A stretch of DNA of 64,000 bases, from assembly GCA_963575745.1 (NCBI GenBank), contig CAUYUJ010000115.1, positions 434,001 to 498,000 of the forward strand, written 5' to 3'. The notes beneath the pieces are model-generated. The model searched no databases and was not told the origin of the DNA. It saw only the letters and a list, made by a program, of their open reading frames with translations. Below are positions 19,990 to 63,900 of this stretch, one piece after another (the first letter of the stretch is position 1; each line of letters starts with the position of its first letter). Both the position numbers and the translations under genes were made by a program. Source of the stretch: Prorocentrum cordatum (Eukaryota).

Positions 19990-21915
19990 CACACTCAGAA
20001 CACATACTTACTCATGCACAGACTTATTCATACTCAGACTTACTCATACCCAGACGTACTCATACACAGACTTACTCATACCCAGAGTTACCCATACACA
20101 CACTTATTCAGACCCATACTTACTCATACTCAGACTTACTCATACTCAGACCTTCCCGTACTCAGACTTATTCATACTCAGACGTACGCATACAAAGACT
20201 TACTCATACACATACTTACTCATACTCAGACTTACTCATACCCAGACGTACTCATACACAAATTTACCCATACTCAGACCTACACATACTCAGACCTTCT
20301 CATATACCTGATTTGCCCAACGCACGGCCGATTCTGATGATGCCTCAGGCGGGGCGCTGGCTTCAGCACCCCTAAGGGGGAGCCGCCAGGGGGTATATCA
20401 CGGGCCCGTTCGCGGCCAGATTGTGGGGATGTCTCAAGCGGTTTGCCTGGTTCGGTACCCAACCTCGTCTGCGTCTACAGCAGATTGCAAACATGTCTCA
20501 GGCGGGGCGCTGGTTTCAGCACTCCTAAGGGGAGCCGCCAAGGGGTATATCACGGGCCCGTTCGCGGCCAGTTTGCGAGGATGCCTATGGCGGTTTGCTT
20601 GTTTCGGTACCCAACATCGTCTGCGATTGCAGCAGATTTGGAGGATGTCGCAGTCGGGGCGCTGGTGGTTTCAGCACGCCTAAGGGGAACCGCCAGGGGG
20701 TATATCGCGGGCCCGTTCGCGGCCAGTTTGTGGGGATGTCTCAGGCGGTTTGCCTGCTTCGGTGCCCAACCTCGTCTGCGTCTACAGCAGATTTCAAACA
20801 TGTCTCAGGCGGGGCGCTGGCTTCAGCACCCCTAAGGGGAGCCGCCAGGGGGTATGTCACGGGCCCGTTCGCGGCCAGTTTGTGGGGATGCCTCAGGCGG
20901 TTTGCCTGTTTCGGTGCCCAGCATCGTCTGCGATTGCAGCAGATTTGGAGGATGTCGCAGTCGGGGCGCTGGTGGTTTCAGCACGCCTAAGGGGGACCGC
21001 CAGGGGGTATATCGCGGGCCCGTTCGCGGCCAAATTGTGGGGATGTCTCAGGCGGTTTGCCTGCTTCGGTGCCCAACCTCGTCTGCGTCTACAGCAGATT
21101 TCAAACATGTCTCAGGCGGGGCGCTGGCTTCAGCACCCCTAAGGGGAGCCGCCAGGGGGTATGTCACGGGCCCGTTCGCGGCCAGTTTGTGGGGATGCCT
21201 CAGGCGGTTTGCCTGTTTCGGTGCCCAGCATCGTCTGCGATTGCAGCAGATTTGGAGGATGTCGCAGTCGGGGCGCTGGTGGTTTCAGCACGCCTAAGGG
21301 GGACCGCCAGGGGGTATATCGCGGGCCCGTTCGCCGCCAAATTGTGGGGATGTCTCAGGCGGTTTGCCTGCTTCGGTGCCCAACATCGTCTGCGATTGCA
21401 GCAGATTTGGAGGATGTCACAGGCGGGGCGCTGGTTTCAGCACTCCTAAGGGGAGCCGCCAGGGGGCCCGTTCGCGGCCAGTTTGTGGGGATGTCTCAGG
21501 CGGTTTGCCTGTTTCGGTGCCCAACATCGTCTGCGATTACCGCAGATTTGGAGGATGTGTCAGTCGGGGCGCTGGTTTCAGACTTACTCATACCCAGACG
21601 TACACATACACAGACTTACTCATACACAGACTTACTCATACTCAGACTTATTCATACCCAGACGTACTCATACACAGACTTACTCATACTTAGACATACA
21701 CATCATCAGACCTTCTCATAATCTGAGTTACTCAACGCACGGCAGATTTTGAGGATGCCTTAGGCGGGGCGCTGGCTTCAGCACCCCTAGGGGGGAACCG
21801 CCAGGGGGTATATCACGGGCCCGTTCGCGGCCAGATTGTGGGGATGTCTCAGGCGGTTTGCCTGTTTCGGTGCCCAACATCGTCTGCGTCCACAGCAGAT
21901 TTCAAAGATGTCTCA
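19990..21915. repeat. Composite array: 16-bp catactcagacttact repeats flanking a ~153-bp (307-bp dimer) tandem repeat
   Basis: ORF starts recur at 20443, 20750 and 21057 (period 307); 16-mer tracts at 19990-20300 and 21580-21720. Confidence 0.9.
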
Positions 21916-27180: not shown

Positions 27181-28181
27181 AGGAAAACCAACACTTTTTA
27201 AACATTTCTGTCAAACGGGCTTTTGCGAGCAACTTTTTCGAACTTCTGCGACAACGGTTGCGCACCTGCCAGGGCATCATCCCTGTCAAATAATACCATG
27301 CGGGACACATTCGTTTTTTCTTCGCGCGCGCACGCCGAAATCTCCAAAAACCATTGGGCTTCTTAAGAATTTTAGCACCGCGCATCATAAAATCACACGA
27401 ATCGCACCGTAGGTCCTCGAAAAACAGCTGCACGACTTTTCAAAATTTCCACCCGCGCGCGCTGTCCGAATCCTAAAAAAACCAATGGTTTTCCAACATT
27501 TATGTTACATGAGCTCGAGCGAGCTACTTTCGCACGCTCTTACAACGGGGTTCGCGCGCCTGCCAGGGTGCCCCCCCCACCCCCATCCCATAATCCCCCA
27601 CCATCATCATCCATCCCCCCCCACCCACATCACCCCACCATTTTTAAAAACATAACCATACACACCCCATACCTCCCCATAACCCATCCACCATACCCCA
27701 TTGTGCCTCATCCCCACCCCCATACCCCATTCCCCATACCCCATTCCCCCCCCCCCCCCCCCAACCACACACCCCCCCAGCCCCCATACCTCCCCCCCAC
27801 CACCCCACCCATCCCCCCCACACCCCTGCCCCCCCCTCCCCCCCCCCATACATACATCCATAATCCCTTGCGGTTGCGCAATAGGTTGCGCCCTCGGCCG
27901 CCGAGAATAAAACGCCCTCCTATTGGTTGCGCCATAGGTTGCGCCCTCGGCCGCCGAGAATAAAACGCTCCCGACTGGTTGCGCCATAGGTTGCCCCAGG
28001 AGGCCTTCAAGAGGCCCCAAGAGCCCGCCGTGAGGACCCAATAAGCCCCCAAGAGGCCCCAAGATGCTTCCAAGAAGCCCCCCAAAGCTCAAGAGGACCC
28101 CAAGCGGCTCCAGGAGGCTTCCCCCCTACCCCAAGAGGACCCCAAGCGGCCCCAGGAAGCCTCCGACTGATCACTGTCACA

Positions 28182-28203
28182 TCCGTAGCCATCTCGGATC
28201 AAG
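28182..28203 (+). other. Relic dinoflagellate spliced leader (DinoSL)
   Basis: tccgtagccatctcggatcaag versus DCCGTAGCCATTTTGGCTCAAG, 19/22 identical, ending 26 nt before ATG 28230. Confidence 0.8.
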
Positions 28204-28229
28204 GAATCGCCTGTGTTCTTGGATGGGTC

Positions 28230-31170
28230 ATGGCTTTGTCGGCGAAAGCCCTTGACGACCAGTATGGCCCAGAGCTGTCGCGGCCTCCCTTGGCTGACTG
28301 CGGCAGCCCGTATTATTTGCATCAGGCGCTCGTTGCAAAGGGTATCCAGGTCAGTCACCAGGCGTGCAAGCTTTGGTGGTGCAAGTATCGGGTTGTGCCT
28401 GGCACGGTCAGTATATCTAGCGCCACGGAGCTGGAGGAGCACCACGGCTCTGCCATCCGCCACCTGGGCATCGAGTATAATACAGCTTTTAAATTATGCG
28501 GGGCGCTCCGACAGTTGGATCCACCACTGTATGTGTCAAATAAGGTCGCAACGACGTGGTTACTGCAGTATTCTTCCAAAGAGACGCTTGTCAAAGTGCA
28601 GAACGCTGGCCATCTGGAGACCTGGCATGGAGAACGTATTCGCACAGACATGCCCGAGGGGACAACTGACGGGGCCGTCTTGAAGCAGTGGCTCCTGGGA
28701 CATTTATCTGTATCTGCTGACGCCAGGGTATGTCAGAAGTGGCTCAGCACGGACTGGGGCGCCAAGGGAGCATTGAATACTGCCCAAGCTGTGGAGGAAT
28801 GTATAGGCCTGCGTCTTCGACTCAATCAGTATCGGGAGAGCTTTGCCGACGAGGCCGCCGCGGAGGTCCTCTCGCAGATGCTCTCGGAGAGCGACCCTCC
28901 CGTCGCTGTCAGCGGTATGGTTTTGAGGCAATGGTACGTGAAGTATCACCCTGACTCCGGACCTTTGCAGTATGACACGGCTGACAAGCTCGACGCGGCA
29001 CTTGGTGACCACATGCGCGCGGTATATCCAGGGCTGAAGTACCACACCTTGCATACCGTGTTGCGTATGCGACGGAAAGCTGTCTTGGTGTCCCGAGGAG
29101 TGTTGAGACAGTGGTGCGATGCGTATGCGTCGGTGAGCTCTTCAGTGCAGGCGACGGCTTCATCCGCCCAGGCCGTCACCAGGCGTGTATTGAAGCGCCC
29201 GGCGGCGCGGGTCGCAGGCGGGGTATTGAAACGGCCAGCCGCCGCCGGATCTGCCCGCGTGGCCAAACGGCCTGCCGCGGTCGACTGGGAGGAGCCCGTA
29301 ACCAAGCAGCAGGCCACGGCAGCTTCTTCCTCAACAGATGTGGTTCGTATGACGCTGATGACGGTGGAGGCTCTAGAGGCGGCATGCGGCAAGCGGTATC
29401 GAGAGGAGGTCTCCGACCTGGGCCTTGGCCTCGACTACCGGAATATGCAGGTGCGTCTGAAGGCCTGGGGGTATGAGACGGGTCCGAATGTCTGTCGAGA
29501 GTGGTTTGGCAGGTATCGCCTCGGAGACGGTGCCAAACACGGCAATTCCGCCGTCTACGCGCTGTCGCGCAGGGACCTCCAGTACTGGTATCACGTAGAA
29601 GGCTTGAGGGGGCGAGCGCTGGTGGACAAGTATCGCGCGGAGACCGGGGTATTTGCCCATTGCGCTAATCTTCAGACGTGGCTGAAGGCGCCCTCTCAGC
29701 AGCTGGCACTACTGGAGAATGCTGAGGACATACATCGCCACGTATGCGGGGAGTTTGTCCTGGAGCAGCTGCAGAAGGGCGTCTCGGCCGAGGAGGTGAA
29801 AAAGCAGTTATTGGCGCAGTATCTCGTTGATTGCAGGACCACGCAGCGGCTCATAGCGTATCGTCGCTATCGCGAGCAGCGTGGCGAATACTGGACCAGC
29901 GACCACCTGGAGCAGCACGAGTGGGAGTTCTTGTATTCCTTCGTCTCTCTGGATAGCAAGCTCGGGCACACCTGGGGGGTTGCTCCCTCTCTGCGCGCCC
30001 GGGCCAGATCTGCTCTGGAGACTGTGCGTATATCCTTATGTGAGCGCTTGGGCGTGGCGGAAGAGTTGGTGCCTTTGCACAATCTTGCGGTATTTTTTGG
30101 AGAACACGAACGGCATGCCAGGTTGGCTCTCGAGTATCCGGATGCTTTCGTATACAAGGATGTGCTGCCAGGCCCTGTGTTGGAGGCCTACGAGAAGACC
30201 TTCCAGGGCCAGGTGCTGCCCAGGACTGCGCACGCGTGTATCTCCGACAAAGAGCACGGCTGGTATGCGAGAGCTTGCAGCGTGGCGACAGCTGACCGGT
30301 GCATAGTATTCCCGAAAATGGCGGCGGACGCTTGTCTTGTTGCTGCGTATGCCATGTTGAAGTGCCAGGAGGTATTTCAGCGACAGTCTTGGTCCATGTC
30401 ATTACTCACCAGTATCCAGGCCACCTACCATAAGCAGTATAATTTGACGGATTTTGCGTTCTGGGTGTGCTACGGGAGTTGGTCCGCTTGCGAGGCCTGC
30501 GGCTCGTTCTTCTTTAATGACGAGTATTTCTCGAATCGTGTATATCAGGACCGCAGCACGTCGGAGCAACCAGACATGCTGGCGGCGTATCGTCGGCAAG
30601 TACCGCACGACCCAGTGGTGCACGCCTGTGGCCAAGTTGGTATATCTTCGAGATGGTGGTATAAGCCAGGCATGTATACGCCTGTGGTTGCCACATGCCC
30701 TTGCTGTTCTGGCAAAGAGACCCCTCTCGAGAAGTTCAACCGGCGTATGCAGAACCACGGCAAGGCCCTCAAGGTAGCAAAGACGTCGGAGCTGTATTGG
30801 ATCCCCTTGGCCACGAAGTCGGGCTACGAGGCAAAGGAGTGTATCAGCTGGCCTCGGTATTCCTTTGGGCAGTTTTCGCTGGACCACACCACTGGACCCT
30901 GTATGCATGAGATGACCGTGGACGAATGTCGTGCTCTGAGCATCGTCGTATTGAAGACCTCCGTGCAGCAGGAGCGGTATGGCGCCGCGCACCAGTTCAA
31001 CTGGAAGAAGGTGGGGCTCTCGCGCGCGTATTTCAAGAAGGACCTGGTCTGCGAAGCGAGTCTGCCTACGGAGCGGTGCAAGGCTGCGTATCACTTCTTG
31101 AGGGAGCACAGCAAGTATTACCGCGTCCTCCTGACGGAACAGAGGATCCGCGCGGGCAGGGGCTCCCACC

Positions 31171-31226
<56 letters not shown>

Positions 31227-31229
31227 CAA

Positions 31230-31260
<31 letters not shown>

Positions 31261-31282
31261 ACGGCGACGACGACGGCGACGA

Positions 31283-31324
<42 letters not shown>

Positions 31325-34300
31325 ACGATGACGACGAGATCGACGGCGACGTAGACGATCGCGAGGTTGACCAACCAAAAAAAAAAAGAAAAAAAAAAAA
31401 AAAACAACAATAAAATAGCTTTCTGACGTCCCAGAGGATCCGTATCGAGAACCGCAGCTCCTTGAACCTGTCCTCCTACGACCTCTTTGTGGTCATGAAA
31501 GGTATCGAGTGTGCCATGTATCCCGTCTTGTACCCGACCACGGACTTCACAGATACGGGTATAATGGAGCACTACTATGCCGAGACCCAGGACAGCACGA
31601 ACCGTGTGGTATCCATCGGCCTGTCTTGGGCTCGGAAGGTGCTGTCCAGTGCCCGCGTATATGGCGAGCAGCGGGACCTGCCGTTCTTCCTGTACGAGAA
31701 GCACTTGGCGAACAAGTATTTCAATGCACAAGTCCGTGCCAAGAGCCTCGGCGTCACTGGGGATGTCATGTCTCGGGACTCGCAGGCGTCTACGGGGTTT
31801 TGGGAGATTGTGCAAGACTCCCTCGCTGATCTTGTGCGTATCATGCTCGTGCGCTGCTACGACGAGAAGAATTATGAGGCCCTGTATCAACACTGCCGGA
31901 ATATTCGGGGACAGGTCTGGCTGTGCGCGTTTCCGAACTTGTTCATCACCATCGCGCCCGCGGAGTGGAAGTTCCCGAGGCCGTATTTCATGGAGCCGTA
32001 CCTTCGCTGTATTTTTGCTGGTGCGTATATGATGTCACTTCATATGTACTACCTGGTTCGCTGTATCTGGCTGTTCCTGGCGAACCGCTGGGGCCACAAG
32101 TACTTCATCGTTTACGAGTGGTGTATGAAGACCGAGTACCAAGGCCGTGGCACCCCGCACTGGCACATCTGCGCGTGGGTTGTATGCTTTGGGCTGTTGT
32201 AGTATCTCCAGGGGCGCACCGGGACGGCTGTCGTGTCGGCATTCGTCAAGTTCCTCTCGCTTGTATTCTGCGCCGAGATAGATGTTCAGATAGGCAACGG
32301 CCGGCTCAACTACATTTCAGGGTATGTCGCGAAGGACCACGATGCCGTCGACGTCGGGCTCGGCGAGTATGTGCAGAAGAATGCGAACAGCTCCTGGCTG
32401 ACCGCGTATCGCTTGCTCAGCAAGAGCAGCCCGTGCCTGCCGGAAGTGGCCATCCGTTTGGCGCAATTGTCGGAGTTTGAGCGGTCCTACTCTCATGTAT
32501 TGCTGTATCCACCGCAGCCGGCAGCCATGGTGAATTACGACGGGCGGCAGGGTAACTTTTCCTCGAGGATGTATGGCTTTTACCTTCAGGAGAAGAGGGA
32601 GCAGCTGGTCGCAGGGGTTCCCGTATCGGACAGTTTCTTGGTATGGCACCGTGGCAGGGAGTATGATTCCTGCAACCACTGCGTGCATTTTCGTGGCGGC
32701 CGACATAATCAAAGGTATGAACCTACGCAAGTGGTCGCCTGCAGGTATTGGTACGAGCTGACGGACGGGTACTGGGGCCAGCATTCACTGACTATGCTGC
32801 CACATGTATACGCTTCACAATTACTCCCTCGGACGTTCAATCACCTGGACAGTATGAAGAATTTCGTGGGCATGATCGAGTATCTCATGTCCTGGAATTG
32901 GTCCGGCACTGTTGGTATCGTGGAGACGTCGTGTGATCTCAAATTCCACACTCAAGCGCTGCCGATGCGTGTGGGCGATGATGGCCAGATACTCACATTC
33001 GGCTCTGAGTATACTGCAGGAGAGCCTGTATTTGCCAATGACAGGGCAGCATTCGAGTATCTGCTCTCGCTGGCCCGACGCGATCTGCAATTTCGCGGTA
33101 TGCGCGATGAGCGTGTCGGCTGCTTTGAGCAGAAGCAACACGCGAATTTTCTGCTGTATCAGCGTGTTGCTCGATGCAATAACGCGCCAGAGTATGAGTG
33201 CCTTCGGCAGGAGTGGGATACCTTGAACAGGCCGAAGTATCAGCAGCGCACGTGGAGCCCAGAGCAGGCTGATGCCATCGAGCGGGTCAAGAAGGCTGTG
33301 TCGCTGGAGGACGAGGAGGAGAAGCAGAACAGCAAGCGTTTCTTGTATATCTCTGGACCGCCCGGCAGTGGGAAGACGGCAGTATTGTTGGAGCTGGCCA
33401 TTTGGGCATGTGAGTCTCTTCAGGTTTTGATCGTGTGCCCCACCGGGTATCTCGTGCACCAGTACAAGTCCAAGCTGCCCGACAGACCTGGTATCGAGAA
33501 TATCCGAGTGGACACGATACAAGGAGTCTTGAAGTATAAGAGGGCCGGCAAGGACGGCAAGGTCCGCTGGGCCCCACCCTCGGCTTTGAGAAGTATTGAT
33601 TTGATTCTTTGCGATGAAGGGAGCCAGTATGAAGACCAGGAATGGATGCGGTTTTTCGCCTCGGTGCGGGAGCAGCCGCACAAACCCTTCACTGCTATCG
33701 TGGCCGATTTTAAGCAGTTACAGCCAGTATTGAGCGGGGGCCAGTGCGAGCACTTCTGCAACCAAATGGACAAGGTCGACTTGAAAACCGTGTATCGCAC
33801 CGCTGACAAGCAGCACTTGGTTTTCCTGAATCGTATACGTGAGGCTCAGCCAGATCGAGCGGTTTTGACTGAGTATTTTGGAGACCGCCACTGGCATCAT
33901 GAGTGCTTGGAGGCCTGTGTTGAGCGCGGTATGGCGTTGGCGGCGGAGACAGGGCATCCGTTTTCTTGGCTCACGTGTACGAACGCGGGCTCGGCGGAGG
34001 TATGCAGAGCGGCGCTGGCATTACTCGGCATTAGTGAGGCCGATCTGAAAAAGGGTGGGTATTGCGACCCGACCACGAAGTCCGTCTTACGCATTCTGGC
34101 CAGACCTGGTATCGTCATTCGCCTGAGTCGGAACTTTGACAAACAGCGGGGCTTTGTGAATGGGGCGTTGGCCACGGTATGCGAGTCGCTTCGTGGACAC
34201 TCAGTGTTTACAGCCAGGCTGGTGGGTACGGGCAACATGGTATTGGTGCACCCCATCGAGGAGAACGGAGAGGTATTCCTGCCTTGCTGCTACGGGTATG

Positions 34301-35178
34301 CGACCACGGTGCGTCGAGCGCAGGGCGCGGATCTCTTTCACGGGTGTGTATATTTCGAGCAGAAGAAGAGAGTGGCTACGAGAGGGTATGGCTACGTTGC
34401 CTGCAGTCGCTTCAAGTCTCGCGAGGGCTGCCATGTATTCGGCAAGCTCCGCCGCAGTGACTTCCTGCCGGCTGGGCCCGAGCAGGAGGGCGAGATTTTG
34501 GAGCGCGGGTATGACTCTGTATCGTCATCTGACGACGAGGGGAAAGGCATGGAGTATGCTCTTGCAGATCAAGGTGAGTATGACGCGGACCCTGTTGTAT
34601 CCATGGACATGGGCAACAACCTCGTGGACTCCTTGTTTTTTTTTTTTTTTTTTTCCCTTTATTTTTCTTCTTTTCCTTTTTTCTTTTTCTTCTCCTGTCT
34701 TTCTTTATTTTTTTGTCTATTTTTTTTTTTTTATTTTGTCCTTCTTTTTTTGTTTTTTTTCTTTGTTCTCTTCCATATTATCGTTATTTTCATTCCTTCT
34801 CTCTCTTTTCTTTCTTTCTATTTTTTTTTTTCTTTTTTTGCTTTTTTCGTTTTTTTTCTTTTTTTCTTTTTTTTTTTTTTTTTCATTTTTTCTTTTTTTC
34901 TCTTTTTTTTGTTGATTTTTTTCTTTCTTTTCTTGTCTTTTTCTTTGTTGTTTTTATTTTTTTTCTTTTTCCTCGTGAGCACAGAGGATCCGGCAGATGT
35001 ATCCAAGACTGAGTGCAAGCGTACCCTTGCAGACTTTGCTGCAGGTGCCAGTGCGGAGGCTGGCGATGCTCCAGTGTATGAGGAGATGGGCGTATGCAGT
35101 GAGCTTCCAGTGAGGGAAGAAGTGCGGGGCGAGAACGGCGAGCTGCTGGTGTACGGCGGCACGGCGACGCCGGAGTGA
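28230..35178 (+). pseudogene. Helitron-like Rep(HUH, two-Tyr)-PIF1 helicase transposase, ~2100-2200 codons; interrupted by a 292-nt insert, one TAG and a 351-nt T-rich insert
   Basis: Rep motif 1 FITIAP (31942-31959), HUH motif EYQGRGTPHWH (32134-32166), YISGYVAK (32311-32334), PEVAIRL; Zn-finger-like CEAC (30489) and CPCC (30696); helicase GPPGSGKT (33355-33378), LILCDE, ADFKQLQPV, LKTVYR, RNFDKQRGFVNG, YATTVRRAQG, YVACSR. ORFs 31462 and 32233 share a frame across TAG 32200-32202; removing 31145-31436 joins ORF 28230 in frame. Confidence 0.9.
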
Positions 35179-35428
35179 TCAATGTCGTATGGAGCTGGAC
35201 GTCGACCAAAAAAATCAGGGCCCGCATGTATCATCTGCATCGAGCATCGTGGCGGCAACAACTTGCCCCAAAAATGTGACCACACGGTGTCTCTGTATCA
35301 TGTCTGCCATACGCATCATGTGTAATACTGTATGAGTATCATGCGCAATGAGTAGTATTCTCAACAATTGCATGTGAGTCAGAATCTGCGCCCACAAATG
35401 TGACCCAATGTTGTTCCCATGTCTGGTG

Positions 35429-35460
<32 letters not shown>

Positions 35461-35469
35461 GGGGGGGGT

Positions 35470-38400
35470 TCTGTCTTGTCCGCAGTGGGACAGTCGCCAC
35501 GTTTGCTTGGGGGCTAATGTGCACCCTAAGCGACGGCCGATTGCAAGTCCAAGCCAGCATGCGGTTCGTGCGTGTCTTTTTTTTGGATACAGCGCACTAC
35601 GCCCCAGTGCCCGCGCGCTCGCTGTCCTGAACAGTGGCCCCTGTCTTTGTCAGCAATAAGGCAGTCGCCATGGCGGCCTGAGAACCGAAGTGAACCCCTA
35701 GCGATGACTGAATGGATTTTCGACCTAACTTGGTTTTTCTCAAGTCCGTTTAGAGTGCAACGTGCCGACGCGCGCTGTGATTTCTGTATTGTCCGCAATA
35801 GGACAGTCGCCATGTTGGCCTGGGAACTCAAGTGAACCCTGGGCGGTGGCCAGTTGGATTGTACACATAACCCGCGGTTTGCGCATTCCCTTTAATTGGT
35901 GCAGCGCGCAACTCGCCGACGCGCGCGGTGGTTTCTGTTTTGCCAGCAACTGGGCAGTTGCCATGTTAGCTTGGGAACTGAAATTACCCCTAAGCTATAA
36001 CCGATTGGATGTGCAATTTAACCTGTGGGTATCAGATGCGCGTCTATTGGCGCAGCCTGCAGCGCGCCGGCCCGCGCGGTGGTTTCTGCATTGGCCGCGG
36101 CAGGGCATTCGCCATGATGGCCTGGGAACTAAGTAAACCAGCAGCGGTGACCGATTGGATTTTCCATCTAAGTTTCTACATGTCAGTTTACTGGTGCAGT
36201 GCAACGCGCCGACGCGAGCGGTGGTTTCTGTATTGTCCGCAGCCGGACAGTCGCCATGTTGGCCCGGAAACTAAAGCAAGCCCTGAGTGGTGACCGATTC
36301 GATGTTCAACTTAACTTGCGGCCCTTACACGTCCTGAGCTACAGTGAGCCCGTAGCAGTAACCGATTGGATGTTTAATGTGGCTTGCGTTGTTTTACATG
36401 TCCGTCTAGTGGTTCAGTGTGCAAGGCGCCGACGCGCGCGCGCGCTCGTTGTCGCGCGTGGTGGATTGCCGTATTGTCTGCAAACGGACAGTCGCCGCGT
36501 TGGCCTGGCATCTTGCGGTTGTGATGTGTCCGTCTATTGGTGCAGCGCACAACGCGCCGACGCGCGCGGCGGTCTCTGTTGTCCGCAGTAGGACAGTCGC
36601 CATGTTGGCCTGGGAACTGAAATGAACCCTTAACGCCCGCCGATTGGATGTCCCCTTTGACTTGCGCTTGATACTCCCAAGCAAAATTAAAACCATCTAC
36701 CATCTATTGATGCAGCGCGCAACGCGCCGACGCGCACGCGCGCTCGCTGTCGAGCGCGTTTCTATATTGTCCGCAATAGGACAGTCGCCATGTTGGCCTG
36801 GGAACTAGAGTGAACCCGGAGCGGTGACCGCTTGGATTTCCACCTTATTTGCTGTTTTCTCATGTCCGTTTATTGGTGCAGCCTACAGCGCGCCGGCGCG
36901 AACGCGCGCGCGCTCGCTGTCGCGCACGGTGCTTTCTGCGTCGTCCGCAGCCGAACTGTCGCCGCGTTGGCCGGGGGATTGACGTGAATCCGTAGACCGA
37001 TTGGGTTTCCAATCTATCTGGTGCTTTTTACATGTCCGTCTATTGGTGCAGCGCACAACGCGCTGGCGCGCGCACTCGCGCGAGCGCGCTCGCAGTCGCG
37101 CGCGGAGGTTCCTGTGCTGTCCGCGATGGGACAGTCGCCATGTTGGCCCAGGAACTGAGGTGAATCCTTAGCGGTGGCCGAGTGGATTTCCAATTTAGTT
37201 TGTTGTTTTTACATGCCATCCCGCTTGTTCAGCGCGCAGCGCGCCGACGCGCGCGCGCTCGCTGTGGCGCGCGGCGGTTTCTGTTCTGCCCAGTGCAGGG
37301 CAGTCGCCACGTTTGCCTGGGGGCAACAGTGGGCCCTTCAGGTGCGACGGATGGGATGTCCACCTTAACATGATGATTTGATTTGCCCGTCTATTGGTGC
37401 AGCGCATAACGCGCCGACTCGCGCGCGCGGAAGTTTCTGCGCGGTTGGCAGCGCGGCAGTCGCCACGTTGGCCCGAGAATTAAATTTTAGACGACGCTTC
37501 GCGCATCCCCGCCAGCCCACCCAGGAAAGATGCCCAGGCGAGTCGAGGCGCTCAGGGAAGCGCGGGAGCAAAGTGGGGAACTGCCGAACCGCGCGAAGGA
37601 GGGGGGGGGAGAAGGCAGAGGCTGGATGGACGGATAAGGGAGTGGGGAGAGGGGGGATGAATCGGACGAGGAGGAGGAGGAGGAGGGGGAGGGGGAGAAG
37701 GCAGAGAAGGAGTAGGAGGAGGAAGGAGGAGCAGGAGGAGGAGGGCGAGCAAAATGGCCAGAGGTCTCCTGGATGCCTTTAGGAGCTTCTTGGGATATCT
37801 CTCAGGCGCTTCCCGGTTGCCTCTTGGGATGTCTCGAGGGTCTCTCTGCGGCCCTGGGGGGCTCATCGGCGTCTTGGGCGCGTCGGGGAGGGGGGGGGGG
37901 GCGCTCGGGGTCCTCTCGAGGGCCTCCAGAGTGCCTCTTGGGGGCCTCGGAGCCATCTCGGGGCCATCTCGGGGCCCCTCCTGGGGCTTCCGGGGCGCTT
38001 CTTGGAAGACGTCGATCAAAGAAGGGCACCCCTTCATTGGCTCGCCCCTCGCCCCCCAAGTCGCCCTTTTGAGGCGTTATTGGGGCGCTCTTGGAGCGCT
38101 CTCTGGGCGCTCTTGGGGCCGCCTCGGGGCCCCCGTGGCCCCTTCCCGGGCTCTCCGGGGCCATCTTGGAGCTGTCTCAAGGCCTCGAATGGCTTTCGGA
38201 AGCGACAGGGCGAGAAAGCAACAAACATTGATTTCCCTAGGTTTTTGAAGGATGTTGGCCTCTTGGGGGCATCCGCGGGGAGCTCTTTCGGCACCGTGGG
38301 GCCGTCTTTGAGCAGTCTTGGGGCGTCGTGGAGCATCTTGGGGGCCACCCCGAGGCATCTTGCGCTATCTTGAGCCATCTTGGAGCTTATGTTGGGCTCT

Positions 38401-39125
38401 CTGGCGCCCTCTTAGGGCCATCTTGGGCCATCTCGGACGCCAACTCAGATTCTGGTTGTTGCATGCCCTCCTTTTCGTTCAGCGCACAACGCGCCGACGC
38501 GCGCGCTCGCTGTGGCGCGCGACGGTTTCCTTCTGTCCGGGCCGTGCAGTGCAACGTGTAGTCGCCATGTTTGCCTGGGGACTAAAGTGGGCCTTTTTGC
38601 GCGGATTGGATCTCCACCTTAACTTGCAGTTTTGATGTGCCCGTCTACTGGTGCAGCGCACAACGCGCCGACGCGCGCGCGCGGTGGTTTCTGCGTGGAT
38701 CAATGCGGCTGCCGCCATGTTGGCTTGGGAACTGAGTTGCACCGTTAGCGGTGACCGATGGGATTTCCACCTTCGTTTCTGGTTGCTCATGCTCGTCATC
38801 TGTGCAGCGCATAACGCGCCGACGCGAGCGCGCGCGCGGTGGTTTTTGCATTGTCCGCAATCGGAGTATCGCCACGCTGGCTTGGGAACTAAAGTGGGCC
38901 GTTAGCGGTGGCCGATTGGATTTCCAATTCATTTTGCGTGTCGTAAATGTTTGATTGCAGGTGCAGCGCAAAACGCGCCGATGCGCGCGCGCGCTCGCTG
39001 TCGCGCGTGGTGATTTCTGCATTGTCCGCGGCGGGACAGGCGCCGCGTTGGCTCGGGAATTCAAGTGAACCCCTCGCGGTGGCCGAATGGCTTTCCACCT
39101 TGCGCGCGCGCTCTCGCTGTCTTTC
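35470..39125. repeat. Degenerate ~120-bp tandem array, interrupted at ~37490-38455 by a reverse-oriented family-C-like repeat
   Basis: Recurring gcagcgcacaacgcgccgacgcgcg...ttgtccgca..ggacagtcgccatgttggcctgggaact..agtgaaccc. Confidence 0.85.
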
Positions 39126-39542
39126 GTATTTCTGCGTTTCCAGGTGGCAGTATCAGGAGCGGTACCGCGTACGCCGACTACCCATGGTAGAATCTGACGG
39201 TAATTCCAGCAGCTGAGTGTGCTTGCGAGTTGTCGCATGCTGAGGCGTGAGCTCGCGTATGGGTGCAGACGTATGCGAGACGAGCCTTCGCAGACAAACA
39301 CGTACCGCGGCTTGGTCAAGGCCGACCAAAGGTCTCTGGGTAGAATCAAGTCCGTGTGCTTGCGAGTTGTCGCGGAAGTCGCATAGGCAGGCAGCAGTGA
39401 AGAAGCTCATGTACGCTGCGCCCCCCTCGTGAAGCGAGGTATGCTGCAGCCTTCAGGCACCGGTGCGTGCAAACGGACGTACCAGGAGCTGGTATCCGCA
39501 GCGCGCGCTCGCGGCGCCAGCGAGTATCAAAGAATTAAAGTG

Positions 39543-40552
39543 CAGGGAAGGTGGACCACCAGACGTATCCAAAGCCACGTTGGAAGCGCTGGTGGCTGAG
39601 CCCTAGGGGCGGTGCTCAGTTGTATAGTGCATTGTGGCAGACTTTGGTGTCAAGCAGAACTGTATGAAAGAAGAGCCACCAGTAATGACATACACACACA
39701 TATACACACACATGTAAACATTCGAGCTCGGTGCGCATAGCCATGCCTTTACACGCAGACGTGCACATACACAGTCTCGCACACATATACGTGCGTCGAG
39801 ACATGCACTGATATGTACATATCCTCGTACTTACGCAAACACATACACTTGTACATAGAGACACACACGTACTAACACATACAGACACACATACATCCAT
39901 GGATACACAAATGTATCATCAAAGATGTGTTTCGCAAATGTGACCTCCGACACGCAAAACGGTCTCGCAAGTATAAAATGCTGGTAGCTGTCCAAAGTGT
40001 CTTCTCCGTCTTGTGAAGGATCGCGCTTGGCGACGACACGTCAGGGAAGGTGGACCACCAGACGTGTATCCAAAGCCACGTTGGAAGCGCTGGTGGCTGA
40101 GCCCTAGGGGCGGTGCTGGTGCTCAGTTGCATAGTGCATTGTGGCAGACTTTGGTGTCAAGCAGAACTGTATGAAAGAAGAGCCACCAGTAATGACCTAC
40201 ACACATATACACACACATGTAAACATTCGAGCTCGGTGCGCATAGCCATGCCTTTACACGCAGACGTGCACATACACAGTCTCGTACACATATACACGTA
40301 CGTTCGTCGAGACATGCACTGATATGTACGTATCCTCGTACTTACGCAAACACATACACTTGTACATAGAGACACACACGTACTAACACATACAGACACA
40401 CATACATCCATGGATACACAAGTGTATCATCAAAGATGTGTTTTGCAAATGTGACCTCCGACACGCAAAACGGTCTCGCAAGTATAAAATGCTGGTAGCT
40501 GTCCAAAGTGTCTTCTCCGTCTTGTGAAGGATCGCGCTTGGCGACGACACGT
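39543..40552. repeat. Recent ~500-bp tandem duplication
   Basis: cagggaaggtggaccaccagacgt at 39543 and ~40042; both units end gatcgcgcttggcgacgacacgt. Confidence 0.9.
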
Positions 40553-40687
40553 TCTGCCTTACTTCCTGCAAGTTGGCGTAGTATCATATCTACTGTGCGT
40601 TTCAGGGCCCGCACGCGTCACGTGCATCGAGAATCATGGGTATGGCAACGGCGACGGAGGCGGCGGCGGCGACGGCGAGGGTGACGG

Positions 40688-40724
<37 letters not shown>

Positions 40725-41492
40725 GTATCGTCCTCAGCCTCAGTCTCCGCCTGCCTCAGCACCAGCCTGCCTCAGCGTCGGCCTCAGCCTGTCTCAGCCT
40801 CAGCCTGAATCAGCTCAGCGTGTCCCAGCCTCAGCCTGCTCCAGCTTCAGCTTCACCCTCAGCCTCGGCCTCAGCCTGCGTGAGCCTCTTTTGCTCTCAT
40901 GTCTATCATACGTTTCATGTGCTATACGTATCATACATGACACGGGGATGTGTGTCAAAACATCCCCTAGAAATGTGACCAAGTCTGGTGTGTATGTGTC
41001 CCATGGCTAGCAGACGTATCATGTGCAATCTGTATCATGTGCAACACGGCTCACGTGTAATATGTGTTCCGAGGGCTTTCCCACGGAGTCGCCAGACCCA
41101 TCTGGGGATCTTGGGAGGGCCTCCCAGGGCCCTGTGGTTATGTATTCTCTTTAGGCCTTCGGCCCCAGCCGCCAGACCTCTCTGGGTATCTGGGGGGTTC
41201 CCAGGGCCCGATTGTCTTAGTTTCTGTGGCCCGATTCCCAGGGGAAGTTTATGAGGGCGTCTGGGGGGTTCCCAGGGGAAGTCTATGAGGCCTGTGGATT
41301 CAAATAAAAAGATGAAGTGAGTATGCCTGCTCTGGTCGCATGTGCGGCGGCGGACTTCGTCTTTCCGACGGCGCTCGCATGAGTGTTCTGCGTGTGCGGT
41401 CATGTATGCGGCGGCTATTGTGGGCGCTATGTGCGGTTTCTGGGCATCTGCGTGTGCGGTCGTACTGTACGTATGCGGTTCGCTTCTGTTTG

Positions 41493-41514
41493 TACGTAGC
41501 GGTTTCTGCTCAAG
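41493..41514 (+). other. Probable degenerate relic DinoSL
   Basis: tacgtagcggtttctgctcaag is 17/22 identical to DinoSL, with the gctcaag 3' end intact, 66 nt before ATG 41581. Confidence 0.5.
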
Positions 41515-41580
41515 CCGCTTACTGTATATCGCGAGATCGTATTCACTTCCATATTGCCGGCCTTCCGTATGGCTTCCCAG

Positions 41581-42524
41581 ATGGCCGGTCGGCTCGACCC
41601 CGTGACGGGCGAGTATTACCCAAGCGATGATGAAGTGCGCTACAGTATGGAGCGCTGGCACACGCCACCCAACCACGAGGCGTATGCGCGGCGCTGGCTC
41701 AAGCAGTGTGGCTCGGAGAGGTGGTTCGCGTGCGGTATCTTCTTCCCTATTCTATGGGAGGGTGTCAAGGGCGTATGCCCCGCCGTATCGAGCGTTATGT
41801 CCACGAGGCAGTCGAAGACGAACAACGACCCGGACTACCAGCACAGTATGGGGGGCATCCCCGAGCCGGAGTGGCTTTACTTCGACGCCTTCTTCTACGC
41901 GCACGCGGTATTCGGGAACTTCTCGGTATTCCAGGATGAGAGGCTTGGGAAGCCCATTGGCTACCTTCTGCACGTATTCGACACGCTGTGCACCGCGCGA
42001 GGTATCGTCGCTGGAAAGCCAACCTCTTCGTCCACCCGGGCCAGTGGGTGTATAGCAGTATGCGGTATTTGCTCGGTCAGCTCGCTATTCCCATTCATGC
42101 GGAGATCGTATCCGGCCTCTCCTACAGGGCCCTCGCCACCTTGGACGTATTCATTGCGTATCACGCGGCCTTCATGGGTACGGACCCGCAGAAAATGGCC
42201 ATTTGGAACGTATCCCCTGAGGTCGGCCCAGAGATGAAGTATCCGCGTCAAGACCAGTGGTGGTGGTTGCCCGTATGGCGGTCTTTTGGTCAGAGCGACG
42301 AGTATCCGAACATGCTCGATTACCCGGCCTTGCCACCGCAGGTCCACAACGTGCTCGCGTTAGCACTGCCGTATGCAAGCCCCGGCTCTCTCGCCAGCAG
42401 GCGTATCGGCAATATCATTGGGCATTTGGGAGCGCACGGGTATCAGCCAGGCCCGCACCTGCATCAGCCAGGCAGCCATGTACCCAAGCGCCTTTGCGAC
42501 GTCGCAGACGACGAGTCGCCTTAG
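41581..42524 (+). pseudogene. Unknown ~310-aa aromatic-rich protein split by one frameshift near 41970-42010
   Basis: MAGRLDPVTGEYYPSDDEV...GYLLHVFDTL in one frame continues as RYRRWKANLFVHPGQW...DVADDESP* in another; non-repetitive, coding-like composition; no family recognised. Confidence 0.6.
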
Positions 42525-42833
42525 TATGCTTCTGGGTGAGTATACTCCTACGTGTGACTGGACCTGTTTGCGAAAGCAGGAGAAAGTATGGCACCCCTTT
42601 GTGTCCAGAGCCGCGCCGCTGCGTTATTCCTTTCTCGCTTCTCTCCTTTCCTCCTTGTCCTGCTCCTCCTCCCCCTCTTGCGCCTCGGAGCCGTATTGGA
42701 ACTGTCGATGGCCATCTCCCTGTCTCCCTCGCATGTCTGCTTGTACATATGTATAATTTCAGAACTAAACGTGCATGTGATCGTTTAGAACATGGTGGAC
42801 CGTGCGTATGCACGAACCTTGTGTACTTTCTCT

Positions 42834-43708
42834 CCCTCCGTCTGGCTGTGCACGCGCGCGTTGGGCAGTGAGAGTTAGGATCACAGCGCCACCAGTGTAT
42901 GAGCAATGCATGCGTCATCCTTGGGACTGTATAACAGCAGAAACAGACAACATTGCATCGCAGCGGGACAGCCATCGGGACAACCATCGGGACAACCATC
43001 GGGACAACCATTTGGACAAGCATCGGGATAACGATCGGGACAACCATAACCATCAGGACAACCATCGGGGCAACCATCGAGACAACCATCGGGACAACGA
43101 TACCTTCTCTCTTGTGTCCTCCCACATCCCTCAGGAAGTTGCCCTAAAGATGTGACCGACTCCTCTCTCTCCTTCTCTCTGTCTCTCGCTCTTTCTCTGC
43201 TTCATATCTATCATACGTAACACATCTACTTGTGTAATCGCCTTCCCAGGAATTTGCCTCAAAAATGTGACCAACTATCTTGGCACTGCGTACCATCTCA
43301 CGTGTACCGTGTACCACATCTTCTCAGGTTGCCTCACACATGTGACGAATCTCTTTCTATCTCTCTCTCCACTGGCTCTCTGTCTTGCTCTCTCTCTCTC
43401 TCTCTGTCTCTCTGTACTATGTATGTCATACGCAACAAATGCACCATGCGGGGCACATGCGGGGCCCAAACAAGTGATCAACCTCTGCGGGTGTGTACTC
43501 CACGCCAGTGTAGTATCCACGATCGTCCGCGCGCCACGAAGTGAAGTGTCCTGACGTCATAGGGCGGGAAGCTGGGTGTGGGTGGTTCCCGAGAGTCGTG
43601 TGGATGTTTGGTAGAGCTTGCATTGCCCCCCCACGAAGTGGGGGTATTGGCTGGCGTCGCATGAAAACCCTGGCACTGGGGAGAACACTGAGCGTTCGGG
43701 TAAAATGA
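42834..43708 (+). mobile_element. Conserved end module with hairpin, abutting (TTG)n; contains a 12-bp catcgggacaac repeat at ~42965-43100
   Basis: Shared with 49943-50401; hairpin cccccac-gaa-gtggggg at 43628-43644; ends cgttcgggtaaaatga. Confidence 0.7.
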
Positions 43709-49454: not shown

Positions 49455-49942
49455 GGTGGTGGTGGTGGTGGTGGTGGTGTTGGTGGTGGTGGTGGTGTTG
49501 TTGTTGTTGTTGTTGGTTTTGTTGTTGTTGTTGTTGTTGTTGTTGTTGAACACTATTACTTCTAAAGAATTATTATTGTTGGACCCCCTGGTGCACGCCC
49601 CCCGCCCAAAACCTAGGCCGCAGCTACATTTTCATCATTTTTCTGCGAAAGCTTCAGAAAAGTGGATTACCCCCGGATCCGGTTTTTTGTTGACGCTCGT
49701 TTTCCCTTGCAAAAAACAATAGAAAATGAAAATTCTTGTTCTTAGTTGATCAAATTTCAAGAATCCCTTGCAAAAAATAAGGTAAAGTGGACATTCGCGC
49801 TCGCAAGACGAAATCCTTCCAAAACCTTAGGTTTCGTAGCGATTTTAACATAAAAACATCAAAAACCCAATGGTTTTTTTAAGAAAAAATTGTCAAAATG
49901 TCCTTCCGCGCGCTCTTGCGGATTCATAATTGTCAAAATGTC

Positions 49943-50400
49943 CCTCCGTCTGGCTGTGCACGCGCGCGTTGGGCACTGAGAGTTAGGATCATAGCGCCAT
50001 GAGTCTATGAGCAATGCATGCGTCATCCTTGGGACTGTATAACATCAGTGTAACACATGTACTTCTGTAATCGCATCCCCACGAATTTGCCCCAAAAATG
50101 TGACCAACTATCTTGGCACTGCGTACCATCTCACGTGTACCGTGTACCACATCATATGTAACAGATGTGATCAACCTCTGTGGGTGTGTACCCCACGCCA
50201 GTGTAGTAGCCAGGGTCGTCCGCACGCCACGAAGTGAAGTGTCCCAACGTCATAGGGCGGGAAGCTGGGTGTGGGTGGTCTCGAAGAGTCGTTTGGATAT
50301 TTGGTAGAGCTTGAACGGCCCCCCCACGAAGTGGGGGTATTGGCTGGTGTCGCAAGAAAACCCTGGCACTGGGGAGAACACTGAGCGTTCGGGTAAAATG

Positions 50401-50401
<1 letters not shown>
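49943..50401 (+). mobile_element. Internally deleted copy of the 42834-43708 end module
   Basis: Same start ctccgtctggctgtgcacgcgcgcgttgggca, same hairpin (50321-50337), same end followed by (TTG)n. Confidence 0.75.
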
Positions 50402-50433
<32 letters not shown>

Positions 50434-51875
50434 GCTGGTGCAGTTGCTGTTGTTGTTGTTGCTGTTGTTGTCGTTGTTGCTGTTGTTGCTGTTGTTGCTG
50501 TTGTTGCTGTTGTTGTTGCTTCTGCTCCTGCCCTTCCCTCCCAGAGCGTATCGGACCCTCCTGCAGAACAGCAAACGCACGAGCTCGAAGAAGGCACGGG
50601 GCGTGGACGCCCGAGCGATGGCCAGGCTCCCGCCGTCCCCCGCCGGGAGATTCCTGGGAGGGGGGGCTTTACCTCGTTCTCTTGCGTTTACATCGGCGGG
50701 TGGGCGGGCCCACCCCCCTCCTGTGAAACTACCTGGGATTCCAGCGTGGGGGGGGTCTTTGCTTGGTTATTTTCGTTGACATCGGCCGGTGTGCGTGCCC
50801 GCCCCCCCCTGTGAACATTGGCTGGGCGGGCGCAGGGCAGGCAGGGCCGCAGGGCAGACCGCGTGCCGGCCGCCGCCTGGGGAGAGCCGCGAGGGCTCGA
50901 GGCCGGGCGCCGCACCGGGCGCACATGATCGTGTGGTAGCGATCCTCCCCGGCGGCGGCGCGCGAGGGGGGGGGGGCAGTTTGAGAGTCGAGGCTCGGGG
51001 TTCTCGGGCGGCCATCGCAGTTCCCAGCAGGCGCTGCGGCCTCGGGAGGCGTTCCAGCGGCTGCGCCTCGCCGAGAGCGTCTCGGGGATGCCCGCATGGT
51101 CCCGAACGGCCGCCAGAGACCCGAGTTGTGACCCGAAAACTGAGCTCGGGGGATGTGAGAAGGATCAGTCGGGCATTGGAGAATATGCATCAGCAGTGGC
51201 GGGCTTTTTTTGTCAATCCCAGGACATTCAGAGTGTCGGGGACGACGTCGGGGTGGTGTGGCGTATACCTGCTTTCCCCGTTCCCAGGGGGACAGCGAAA
51301 AATGTATACACCAGGATCCCGTATACTCCAGGATCCGCTTTCCTGTGAGAATTGCAGTGCGGGGCCAGAAAAAGCGTCGGAGCATAGAGTTCGGCTCCTC
51401 AATAAGGCCTTCTCAGATGGCGGCGGGGTTCTCCGAAGCCCCCTCGCCATTGAGAGGTGTTCGGTGCTTTCGGAGGAAGAAAGCTCAGAAAGCTTGTCAT
51501 GAAGCTCGGGGGCGGCAAAGAGGGGGGTGATGACAAATTGTGGGGGTGGATATCATGGCGGGGACCGTGATGTTTCCCCAGATTTCATGGCGCCTCTTCT
51601 CATTTCAACGCCCCTGGCCCCCCCCCGGGCCGCGCACATGCTCCTGGCTATGGTTTGCGCCCCCCCCGCTTGGACGGCACCCTCTTGGCCGCCCCCGAGA
51701 GGCCGAAGGCAGGCCCGCCCCTTCTCATTTCCCCCCCCCCCCAGGCGCGCCGCCGGTCCTGGCGGGCGGTAGCGGCAGCGGGGGGGGTTGGAAGCCACCA
51801 GCGTCCATGAGGAGGAGGAGGAGGGGGAGGAGGAGGAGACGGAGGAGGAGGAGGAGGAGGCCGATTCAGTCAGGC

Positions 51876-63629: not shown

Positions 63630-63900
63630 CTGCAATAGTATGGTATGGTATTGTATGGTATGGTATAGTATGGTATGGTAGGAGCAGGAAGAGGGAGCGA
63701 GCGTGGTAGGTAGGTATTGTATGGTATTATATGGTGTGGTAGGTATGCGGTGATGGTGTATGTATGGTTTCCTAGGTGTGGTATGGTAGGTACGGTGGTC
63801 TGCTATATTATGGTATGGTATGGTATTGTATGGTATGGTATGGTAGGAGTAGGAAGAGGGAGCGGTATTGTATGGTATGGTATAGTATGGTATGGTAGGA
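63630..63900. repeat. (GGTAT)n microsatellite
   Basis: Direct inspection. Confidence 0.85.

Follow-up and report, generated by a model that had tools for sequence, protein, structure and literature searches.

Can a word of four letters, repeated on one strand of a mobile element at short and even intervals, be explained by the composition and the proteins of that element, or is it kept there because something reads it? The question is raised by the tetramer GTAT in a stretch of Prorocentrum cordatum DNA (assembly GCA_963575745.1, contig CAUYUJ010000115.1, positions 434,001 to 498,000), which was analysed on its forward strand over its full length of 64 kilobases (kb). This stretch is referred to hereafter as the window, and positions are counted from its first letter. 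It holds an element in plus orientation, the coding strand being the plus strand. Judging from its conserved motifs, the element encodes a Rep protein of the HUH type with a Pif1-like helicase, together with a second open reading frame (ORF2), and is Helitron-like. Comparison with its relatives indicates that GTAT is a selected word, favoured even at silent codon positions, rather than an outcome of composition, codon usage or a single type of mutation. Its copies tile the element quasi-regularly, about every 45-50 nucleotides (nt).

Strand-biased excess of GTAT

Direct counting yields 198 GTAT and 37 ATAC between 28230 and 42600, and 134 and 16, respectively, between 28230 and 35400. In bins of 250 nt, four to seven GTAT are found nearly throughout 28250-35400 and 41000-43000, and GTAT is the most strand-asymmetric tetramer of the element (172 against 17). 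An earlier, sequence-only reading of the locus had estimated by eye about 21 GTAT and 3 ATAC in 28260-29230, which were recounted as 21 and 3, and about 32 GTAT in 41320-42590, where the recount gives 33 with a single ATAC; the latter region is mostly coding, being occupied for the most part by ORF2 with its one frameshift. That reading had also placed the word in non-coding stretches, and the skew is indeed present there, with 6 GTAT against 2 ATAC in 35180-35360, 7 against 0 in 39130-39570 and 7 against 3 in 40900-41340, although the last of these turns out to include a small inserted repeat. The reported lack of GTAT in two inserts within the gene and its rarity in unique flanks are borne out as well, with no GTAT in the 563 nt of 31130-31331 and 34620-34980 and neither GTAT nor ATAC in 52400-53400. 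The remaining local peaks of either word in the window are ordinary satellites (20006-20304, 21579-21734, 62057-63588 and 63638-63897).

Shuffles of 28230-35400 that preserve dinucleotides produce 16.6±3.7 GTAT (at most 26 in 300 shuffles) against the 134 observed, and those of 41000-43000 produce 8.1±2.5 against 42. Within 28230-35400, GTAT accounts for 134 of 261 TA dinucleotides, as opposed to 24 of 339 and 29 of 307 in the two flanks. Outside GTAT, the frequency of TA in the element equals that of the flanks, and hence GTAT represents an addition to the sequence and not a redistribution of its TA. The claim that the excess goes beyond simple codon bias is likewise upheld by shuffling of synonymous codons, which yields 29.5±3.3, 7.1±1.7 and 23.7±3.0 GTAT in the ORF frames of the window, where 59, 14 and 53 are observed; this null retains the own, already biased, codon usage of each ORF and thereby arrives at about half of the observed number. 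All codon phases contribute, as had been stated (13/14/32, 3/6/5 and 18/8/27 in these frames). No preference for flanking bases was seen around GTAT within the window element.

A trait of the element family

Marine metagenome contigs scanned with the helicase alignment provided 46 loci of relatives, with amino acid identities in tblastn of 50-95% by locus. GTAT outnumbers ATAC on the coding strand in all 46 (pooled, 1730 against 265 in 106,715 nt with a G+C content of 44-61%), and in the parts that align to window proteins it reaches 18.9 per kb against 2.3 for ATAC. By locus, its density ranges from 7.5 to 27 per kb and is unrelated to gene decay as gauged by stop codons (Spearman -0.15, p 0.33; 41 of 45 loci, those with at least 600 coding nt). 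Among all words of three to six letters in the pooled loci, GTAT ranks first for strand asymmetry (z 34.7). The pooled logo of 1896 sites shows GTAT followed by C, G or T, with A at the +1 position in 10% of sites against a background of 22%, and nothing further; a longer motif around GTAT was thus rejected, the avoidance of A at +1 being its sole additional feature. The 51 pattern matches obtained in IMG/VR include no relatives of the element. Near-identical words occur also in marine, estuary and freshwater metagenome runs, the small shares of which were left unused.

Codon choice and conservation

The way in which the 46 loci spell their proteins is biased towards GTAT in all three codon phases. 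Tyrosine following G is encoded 748 times by TAT and 129 times by TAC; after C the two codons stand at 60 and 117, and after A or T at about one to one. Valine is spelled GTA in 352 of 575 cases before T, against 11 of 271 before A, 66 of 441 before C and 67 of 583 before G, and glycine is spelled GGT in 93 of 152 cases before AT and in 372 of 1453 elsewhere, a context bias that Arg, Ser and Cys codons share. At third codon positions, then, the word is favoured through changes to G in the codon that precedes, to A in valine codons, to T in NGN codons and to T in tyrosine codons, and since each of the four letters is drawn to GTAT by a different change, no single mutational process fits the pattern.

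At the GTAT sites of the window, 687 of 1491 aligned tetramers of relatives (46%) are GTAT as well, compared with a conservation of 15645 in 72063 (22%) for all tetramers. This places GTAT fifth among 202 tetramers, beside words that overlap it or that hold ATG or TGG, and at one conserved tyrosine the word is found in 38 of 45 relatives. Sites are nonetheless gained and lost. In a trio of copies that are 88-95% identical, the copies share 22 sites and differ at 14 others, both gains and losses being seen; the window copy has lost three sites retained in most relatives, and at least one of its sites is a gain.

Spacing and presentation

The coefficient of variation (CV) of the gaps between successive GTAT is 0.48, 0.49 and 0.59 in the three uninterrupted blocks of the window, with 0.9±0.1 for random placement, and gaps shorter than 15 nt number 0, 2 and 4, where 12.6, 13.9 and 8.3 would be expected. 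The gaps have a median of 45 nt and a maximum of 135 nt, and 90% of them fall between 16 and 94 nt. Long relatives behave in the same manner, with a low CV (<0.6, P≤0.001) in seven of ten and too few short gaps (P<0.05) in eight. Beyond the mode at about 45-50 nt no clear helical-repeat periodicity was detected, the Fourier peaks being without a null and weakened by the pooling of homologous sites. Hairpin loops closed by at least four base pairs contain 6 of 1903 GTAT, as they do 521 of 115,443 positions overall, and other geometries give similar results; a hairpin-loop motif of the packaging-signal type was rejected, since GTAT is not presented in loops.

Non-coding and intron-like sequence

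The conserved coding sequence of the relatives is broken by 22 insertions (6763 nt, two near-duplicates being left out of the set), which together hold 93 GTAT and 25 ATAC. GTAT is the more frequent word in 16 of them and the rarer in three, and the eight largest, which were checked, have stops in every frame. Within the window, the non-coding parts at 39100-39542, 41041-41568 and 42522-42832 are skewed to a similar end (Table 1), the coding status of the second being uncertain, as the gene model of one relative (P0076) reaches into 41321-41545. Because the skew extends to intron-like insertions and to these parts of the window, GTAT is, by its distribution, neither a translation signal nor a signal of the mature mRNA.

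The interrupting insertions (L034:605-1442, L033:908-1811, L018:440-1021, which equals L004:4865-5448, L007:2084-2371 and others) are of some interest in themselves. Some end in inverted repeats and are flanked by short duplications, and several are located at the same codon (R195) across loci. They resemble the introner elements described for dinoflagellates in PMC12130899.

Anatomy and termini of the element

The features of the element are collected in Table 1. The Rep part contains the HUH-type motif …RGTPHWHICAW… within 31462-32202 and scores 18.4 bits against Helitron_like_N, where the cut-off is 28.9; PF14214 is precomputed on the relatives P0003, P0007 and P0067. In addition to AAA_30, the helicase matches AAA_19 (E 1.2e-5) in Pfam, its assignment draws also on 69 relatives, and the Walker A motif GSGKT/S is invariant in its alignment. 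At the start of 32233-35178 stands the stretch …LNYISGYVAKDHD…, in which N26, Y27, I28, G30, Y31 and K34 are invariant among 17 sequences and which we take to be the Helitron catalytic motif.

Residues 1-560 of ORF1 form about eight tandem modules of some 60 amino acids (aa) and three helices each, followed by a Cys-rich segment and then by a poly-Asp run. The modules (28230-29909) follow the pattern helix, helix, short strand, helix with W..Y, and their weak structure matches (Z 4.0-5.7), which are suggestive only, point mostly to Myb/SANT domains and to the helix-turn-helix DNA-binding domains of transposases and recombinases. ESM Atlas gave no usable match for the N-terminal frame of ORF1, and Pfam no family on its N-terminal modules, its middle part or ORF2; sub-threshold Pfam rows for Slx4 and DUF5768 were disregarded. 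Relatives of ORF2 are 99% identical across two frames (P0074), 70% identical (P0076) and, over 180 aa, 86% identical (P0075), the last with an unverified source label, Pyramimonas sp., that conflicts with the spliced-leader evidence discussed below. Behind 42010, an additional C is present in contigs from two runs, and other copies of ORF2 are therefore probably intact. The predicted fold of ORF2 was unusable (pLDDT 33).

The right junction of the insertion, at 42832, is set by a paralogous, element-free copy of the flanking repeat (49612-50518). The last GTAT starts at 42806, 26 nt before this junction, and the 5-bp hairpin of the 3' terminal part, with GTAT as its loop, ends 18 nt before it; a search of the junction for a poly(A) remnant or an A-run found none. 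Two joints, 28082→43436 (X1, one contig, side 30) and 27568→43251 (X18), may correspond to empty sites; both fall within repeats, and no conclusion was drawn from them.

Table 1. Position and content of the features described for the element and its surroundings
Feature	Position	Strand	Remarks
GTAT-tiled domain, from first to last GTAT	28263..42809	+	4-7 GTAT per 250 nt; broken by GTAT-poor later insertions
Spliced-leader relic	28183..28203	+	3 mismatches to the 21-nt spliced-leader core; 27 nt ahead of the ATG of ORF1
ORF1, first frame, 1033 aa	28230..31331	+	59 GTAT; no Pfam family
(GAC)n low-complexity run within ORF1	31130..31331	+	0 GTAT in 202 nt
Rep part with HUH-type motif …GTPHWHI…	31462..32202	+	Weak Helitron_like_N match, E 0.0026
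Two-tyrosine motif (…NYISGYVAK…) and Pif1-like SF1B helicase	32233..35178	+	AAA_30, E 3.3e-13
T-rich low-complexity run in the tail of the helicase ORF	34620..34980	+	0 GTAT in 361 nt
Non-coding stretch 3' of the helicase stop	35179..35417	+	6 GTAT, 2 ATAC in 239 nt; small inserted repeat at 35260-35333
Later insertion: (GT)n and tandem repeats of ~150-170 nt	35418..39099	.	5 GTAT, 2 ATAC in 3682 nt
Non-coding element stretch with GTAT skew	39100..39542	+	7 GTAT, 0 ATAC
Tandem duplication of ~500 nt, 95.5% identical, without skew	39543..40552	.	10 GTAT, 15 ATAC
Small inserted repeat	40891..41040	.	Also in intron-like gaps of L001 and L002
Stretch before ORF2, non-coding or of uncertain coding status	41041..41568	+	7 GTAT, 0 ATAC
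ORF2, ~317 aa, no known family	41569..42521	+	One frameshift near 42010-42018
3' terminal non-coding part	42522..42832	+	6 GTAT, 1 ATAC; 5-bp hairpin at 42801-42814
Paralogous 'empty' copy of the flanking repeat	49612..50518	+	Marks ~27182-42832 as inserted; left limit imprecise

Two further observations concern the repeats of the element. The in-frame poly-Asp (31130-31331) and poly-Phe/Leu (34620-34980) runs, both GTAT-free, are missing from the conserved alignment. A repeat of about 150 nt is common to the window (40891-41040 and 35260-35333), L002:812-960 and, in reverse, L001:804-936; it occurs in either orientation and may be a non-autonomous passenger of the element family.

Spliced-leader relics

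The 21-nt core of the dinoflagellate spliced leader (SL), a sequence that stands in papers on these organisms, has a likeness at 28183-28203 that none of 100 shuffles matched. A relative, L004, bears an SL-like 21-mer at 788-808, again upstream of ORF1 and with two mismatches to the canonical core. The relics point to a dinoflagellate, or to a close relative of that group with spliced leaders, as the probable host. The ORF1 of the window and that of L004 share only about 49% identity, yet both have the relic. Since SL relics stand upstream of ORF1 in two such distant members, copies derived from mRNA exist in this family, and the relics may reflect either recurrent retroposition or the conservation of an old one. 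Dinoflagellate retrogenes tagged by SL relics are described in PMC5585692 and PMC12014239. As in those genes, the SL-like 21-mer of the window and of L004 lies just upstream of the coding sequence. On the other hand, the element has no poly(A) remnant at its right junction, the inserted segment reaches about 1 kb upstream of the relic, relatives of the element hold intron-like insertions, and other SL-tagged stretches are devoid of the GTAT skew.

Exact copies of the SL core were also noted in 119 stretches of IMG/VR contigs filed as viral or giant-virus bins (L047 onward), often several per contig. Most of this sequence is very AT-rich (G+C 13-30%), and the contigs may be misfiled DNA of alveolates that use spliced leaders.

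Possible readers of the word

We tentatively favour, at somewhat less than an even chance, the reading in which GTAT is recognised at the DNA level by the transposition machinery, as a polar cis signal for priming or protein loading on the peeled-off strand. The plus strand of the element would be nicked, peeled off 5' to 3' by the helicase and copied discontinuously. GTAT would then supply frequent start sites for the priming of the complementary strand or, alternatively, loading or tracking sites for a protein encoded by the element, for which the three-helix array at the N-terminus of ORF1 is, from its modelled structure, a suggestive candidate. The reader would presumably be a primase or an element protein, and we infer by analogy with Helraiser, and from Helitron convention, that the coding strand would be the transposed one. 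The published Helraiser model (PMC5876387) involves lagging-strand synthesis on a peeled-off plus strand and the use of one strand only. The DNA-level reading is preferred because the element encodes rolling-circle machinery and because the tiling extends as far as the DNA junction instead of breaking off before it; the lack of GTAT in later insertions is a further hint. A polarity mark on a single-stranded intermediate had already been put forward in the sequence-only reading, and the anatomy of the element agrees with that part of the proposal, for the word is confined to the plus strand, where it is spread over exons, intron-like insertions and non-coding sequence alike and stops at the right junction.

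Several points weigh against this preference. Exons, intron-like and untranslated parts lie in the pre-mRNA as well, so that recognition in RNA fits nearly as well, and the SL relics imply copies derived from mRNA, for which a transposition signal in DNA is not needed. We know of no primase that requires GTAT, and a literature search for one yielded nothing relevant. For the modules of ORF1, a Z under 8 may, by the structure tool's own note, mean merely a common helical arrangement, and Foldseek against PDB returned nothing at E≤0.001 for the 560-aa model. The right end of the element reads …TTTCTC and not CTRR, its left limit is imprecise (27182 or further right), blurred because the flank is a diverged tandem repeat, and about 1 kb from the left junction (27182) to the ATG of ORF1 is without GTAT. 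Host genes are a separate matter. The 17 long ORFs in the flanks have no Pfam family and the window thus offers no internal host-gene control. As a proxy, 108 distinct stretches with a total of 249,855 nt were examined, all of them located downstream of exact SL copies in contigs of IMG/VR and without relationship to the element, and in this set, which is mostly AT-rich and need not be host DNA, GTAT and ATAC are nearly balanced at 4.78 and 4.57 per kb. Six of its stretches with a G+C of at least 0.45 have 26 GTAT against 11 ATAC, a mild skew at about one seventh of the density in the element. The proxy weakens the idea that host genes are equally skewed and does not settle it.

The main rival, itself rather unlikely, is that the word is read as GUAU in the sense pre-mRNA. 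Densely arrayed along the long transcript, it would be bound by a nuclear RNA-binding protein by which this RNA is protected, exported or marked; alternatively, AUAC would destabilise antisense transcripts. Restriction to the sense strand would follow directly, since one primary transcript would include the two ORFs, the sequence between them and the intron-like insertions, and the 3-5 nt recognised by one RNA-binding domain agree with a bare tetramer that has one weakly constrained base. From the SL relics, the gene is seen to be trans-spliced and to give rise to copies derived from mRNA, and contigs from RNA libraries cover parts of ORF1. Those contigs leave 41384-42451 uncovered, a gap to which no weight is attached. 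Yet the last GTAT stands just 26 nt short of the right DNA junction, where there is no poly(A) remnant, and the 108 SL-tagged stretches from other contigs do not share the feature, which trans-spliced mRNAs therefore do not generally require. None of the RNA marks described for dinoflagellates agrees with it, the context published for N1-methyladenosine (m1A) being NNCA (PMC11549093), and recognition in RNA leaves unexplained why a Rep-helicase element in particular should bear GTAT. A base-modification context, which the sequence-only reading had also suggested, we consider improbable; the modification (e.g. thymine hydroxylation or adenine methylation) would be placed on one DNA strand to protect the element or serve as a host mark. 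Such an enzyme would need just such a short, dense word, and dinoflagellate DNA, according to PMC11572971, is rich in 5-hydroxymethyluracil (5hmU), which is enriched on repeats and transposable elements and whose writer prefers single-stranded DNA. Even spacing and strict one-strand polarity would be unexpected, however, and Pfam finds no methyltransferase or dioxygenase domain in ORF1 or ORF2, the fold of the latter being unpredicted. The proposal draws no support from the published contexts, neither from the m1A context just cited nor from the base-resolution 5hmU map of one dinoflagellate, for which the retrieved part of PMC11071213 reports no motif.

A strand-specific mutational footprint had been proposed from the sequence and is in our view very improbable. 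It would be left by deamination or another context-dependent process on the strand exposed in transcription or rolling-circle copying, and it could appeal to the turnover of sites among close copies and to the G+T-rich sense strand (A 22%, C 23%, G 28%, T 27%; TTT, TGG and GGG exceed their complements), a skew that is common on strands exposed as single strands. Nevertheless, four classes of substitution would have to converge on one tetramer, the one-step neighbours of which are undepleted (17 GTAC, 28 GCAT and 30 GTGT in 7.2 kb). The word is conserved at twice the background across 40-50% protein divergence, it is spaced more evenly than at random, and the 3.7-kb insert within the element has not gained it. 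The probability that GTAT is a mere by-product of protein sequence and codon usage, as in a tyrosine-rich protein with a preference for TAT, is close to negligible. About half of the coding GTAT have the form nnG-TAT and many lie on conserved tyrosines, but TAT is preferred after G alone, the other two phases are enriched too, shuffling of synonymous codons reaches only half of the observed count, and non-coding and intron-like parts share the skew.

Relation to known systems and significance

The element is a new member of the Helitron-like elements. Helitrons end in 5'-TC…CTRR-3' with a subterminal 3' hairpin and insert without target duplication. Like Helraiser and other Helitrons, the element combines on one polypeptide line an HUH-type Rep, with two tyrosines close by, and a downstream Pif1-like SF1B helicase, and it has a subterminal 3' hairpin. 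It departs from them in its 3' end, which is not CTRR, in its undefined 5' end, and in its long N-terminal extension of about eight three-helix modules, its second ORF and its upstream SL relic. As far as can be told from the literature searched, tiling of this kind is new to eukaryotic transposons. Among the matches listed from full-text articles on Helitrons and dinoflagellates, none described such a dispersed tetramer, and GTAT stood only in primers and unrelated uses, subscription journals lying outside the scope of the search.

The nearest concepts come from bacterial chromosomes, phages and rolling-circle plasmids. Chi, read by RecBCD, and KOPS, read by FtsK, are polar, over-represented 8-mers found about once per several kb in bacterial chromosomes. 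GTAT resembles them in being short and strand-skewed, in exceeding composition and shuffles, in its spread over the whole replicon and in its conservation among relatives. It differs as a 4-5-mer that recurs every ~48 nt with regular spacing in a eukaryotic mobile element. Chi and KOPS are read in one direction by a DNA translocase or helicase. The primases of phages T7 and T4 start at 5'-GTN-3', and the single-strand origins of rolling-circle plasmids start the complementary strand on the displaced strand. Primase words likewise are strand-specific signals of 3-5 nt, and GTAT begins with GT, as do the phage words, although selection on codons is not known to have made those words frequent and even in their spacing. 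A single-strand origin consists of one structured site, unlike GTAT, which is not in hairpin loops. It is conceivable, if unlikely, that the tiling constitutes a code of self-identity and polarity for the transposon family, a eukaryotic counterpart of Chi and KOPS read by the element's own Rep-helicase every ~48 nt along the strand on which it moves. Recognition would fall to the eightfold array of three-helix modules or to a zinc module, perhaps with ORF2 taking part. The word would prevent the enzyme from disengaging, set off priming of the complementary strand, or do both, and the end of the tiling might help to define the end of the element.

Should GTAT be a signal of the kind favoured here, a mobile element would be writing a second, non-protein code through its own genes, overriding synonymous choice at hundreds of sites and across deep divergence. 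It would open a way to study how a Helitron-like element distinguishes its own DNA and strand from those of the host, a question posed by the sloppy recognition of ends and the capture of genes in this group. It would also offer a defined short word for biochemistry with primases, the N-terminal array of ORF1 and ORF2, and the combination of skew and spacing would be a simple signature by which elements of this type, non-autonomous derivatives included, could be found in dinoflagellate genomes, which are huge and poorly annotated. If the reader were instead an RNA-binding protein, the tiling would still amount to an mRNA code of unusual density and conservation, in organisms whose gene regulation is mainly post-transcriptional.

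Other features of the window

Rfam gave no matches over the whole window. A short non-coding word, …AAAATGTGACC…, recurs within or beside the element at 35265-35285, 35390-35405, 43140-43160 and 43255-43275. Of the satellites mentioned above, two arrays of 16-nt repeats (20006-20304 and 21579-21734) flank a 152/307-nt satellite at 20339-21581. A 77-nt satellite of about 20 copies and then a (GTATG)n microsatellite make up 62057-63588 and 63638-63897, the source of the ATAC and GTAT peaks at the end of the window.

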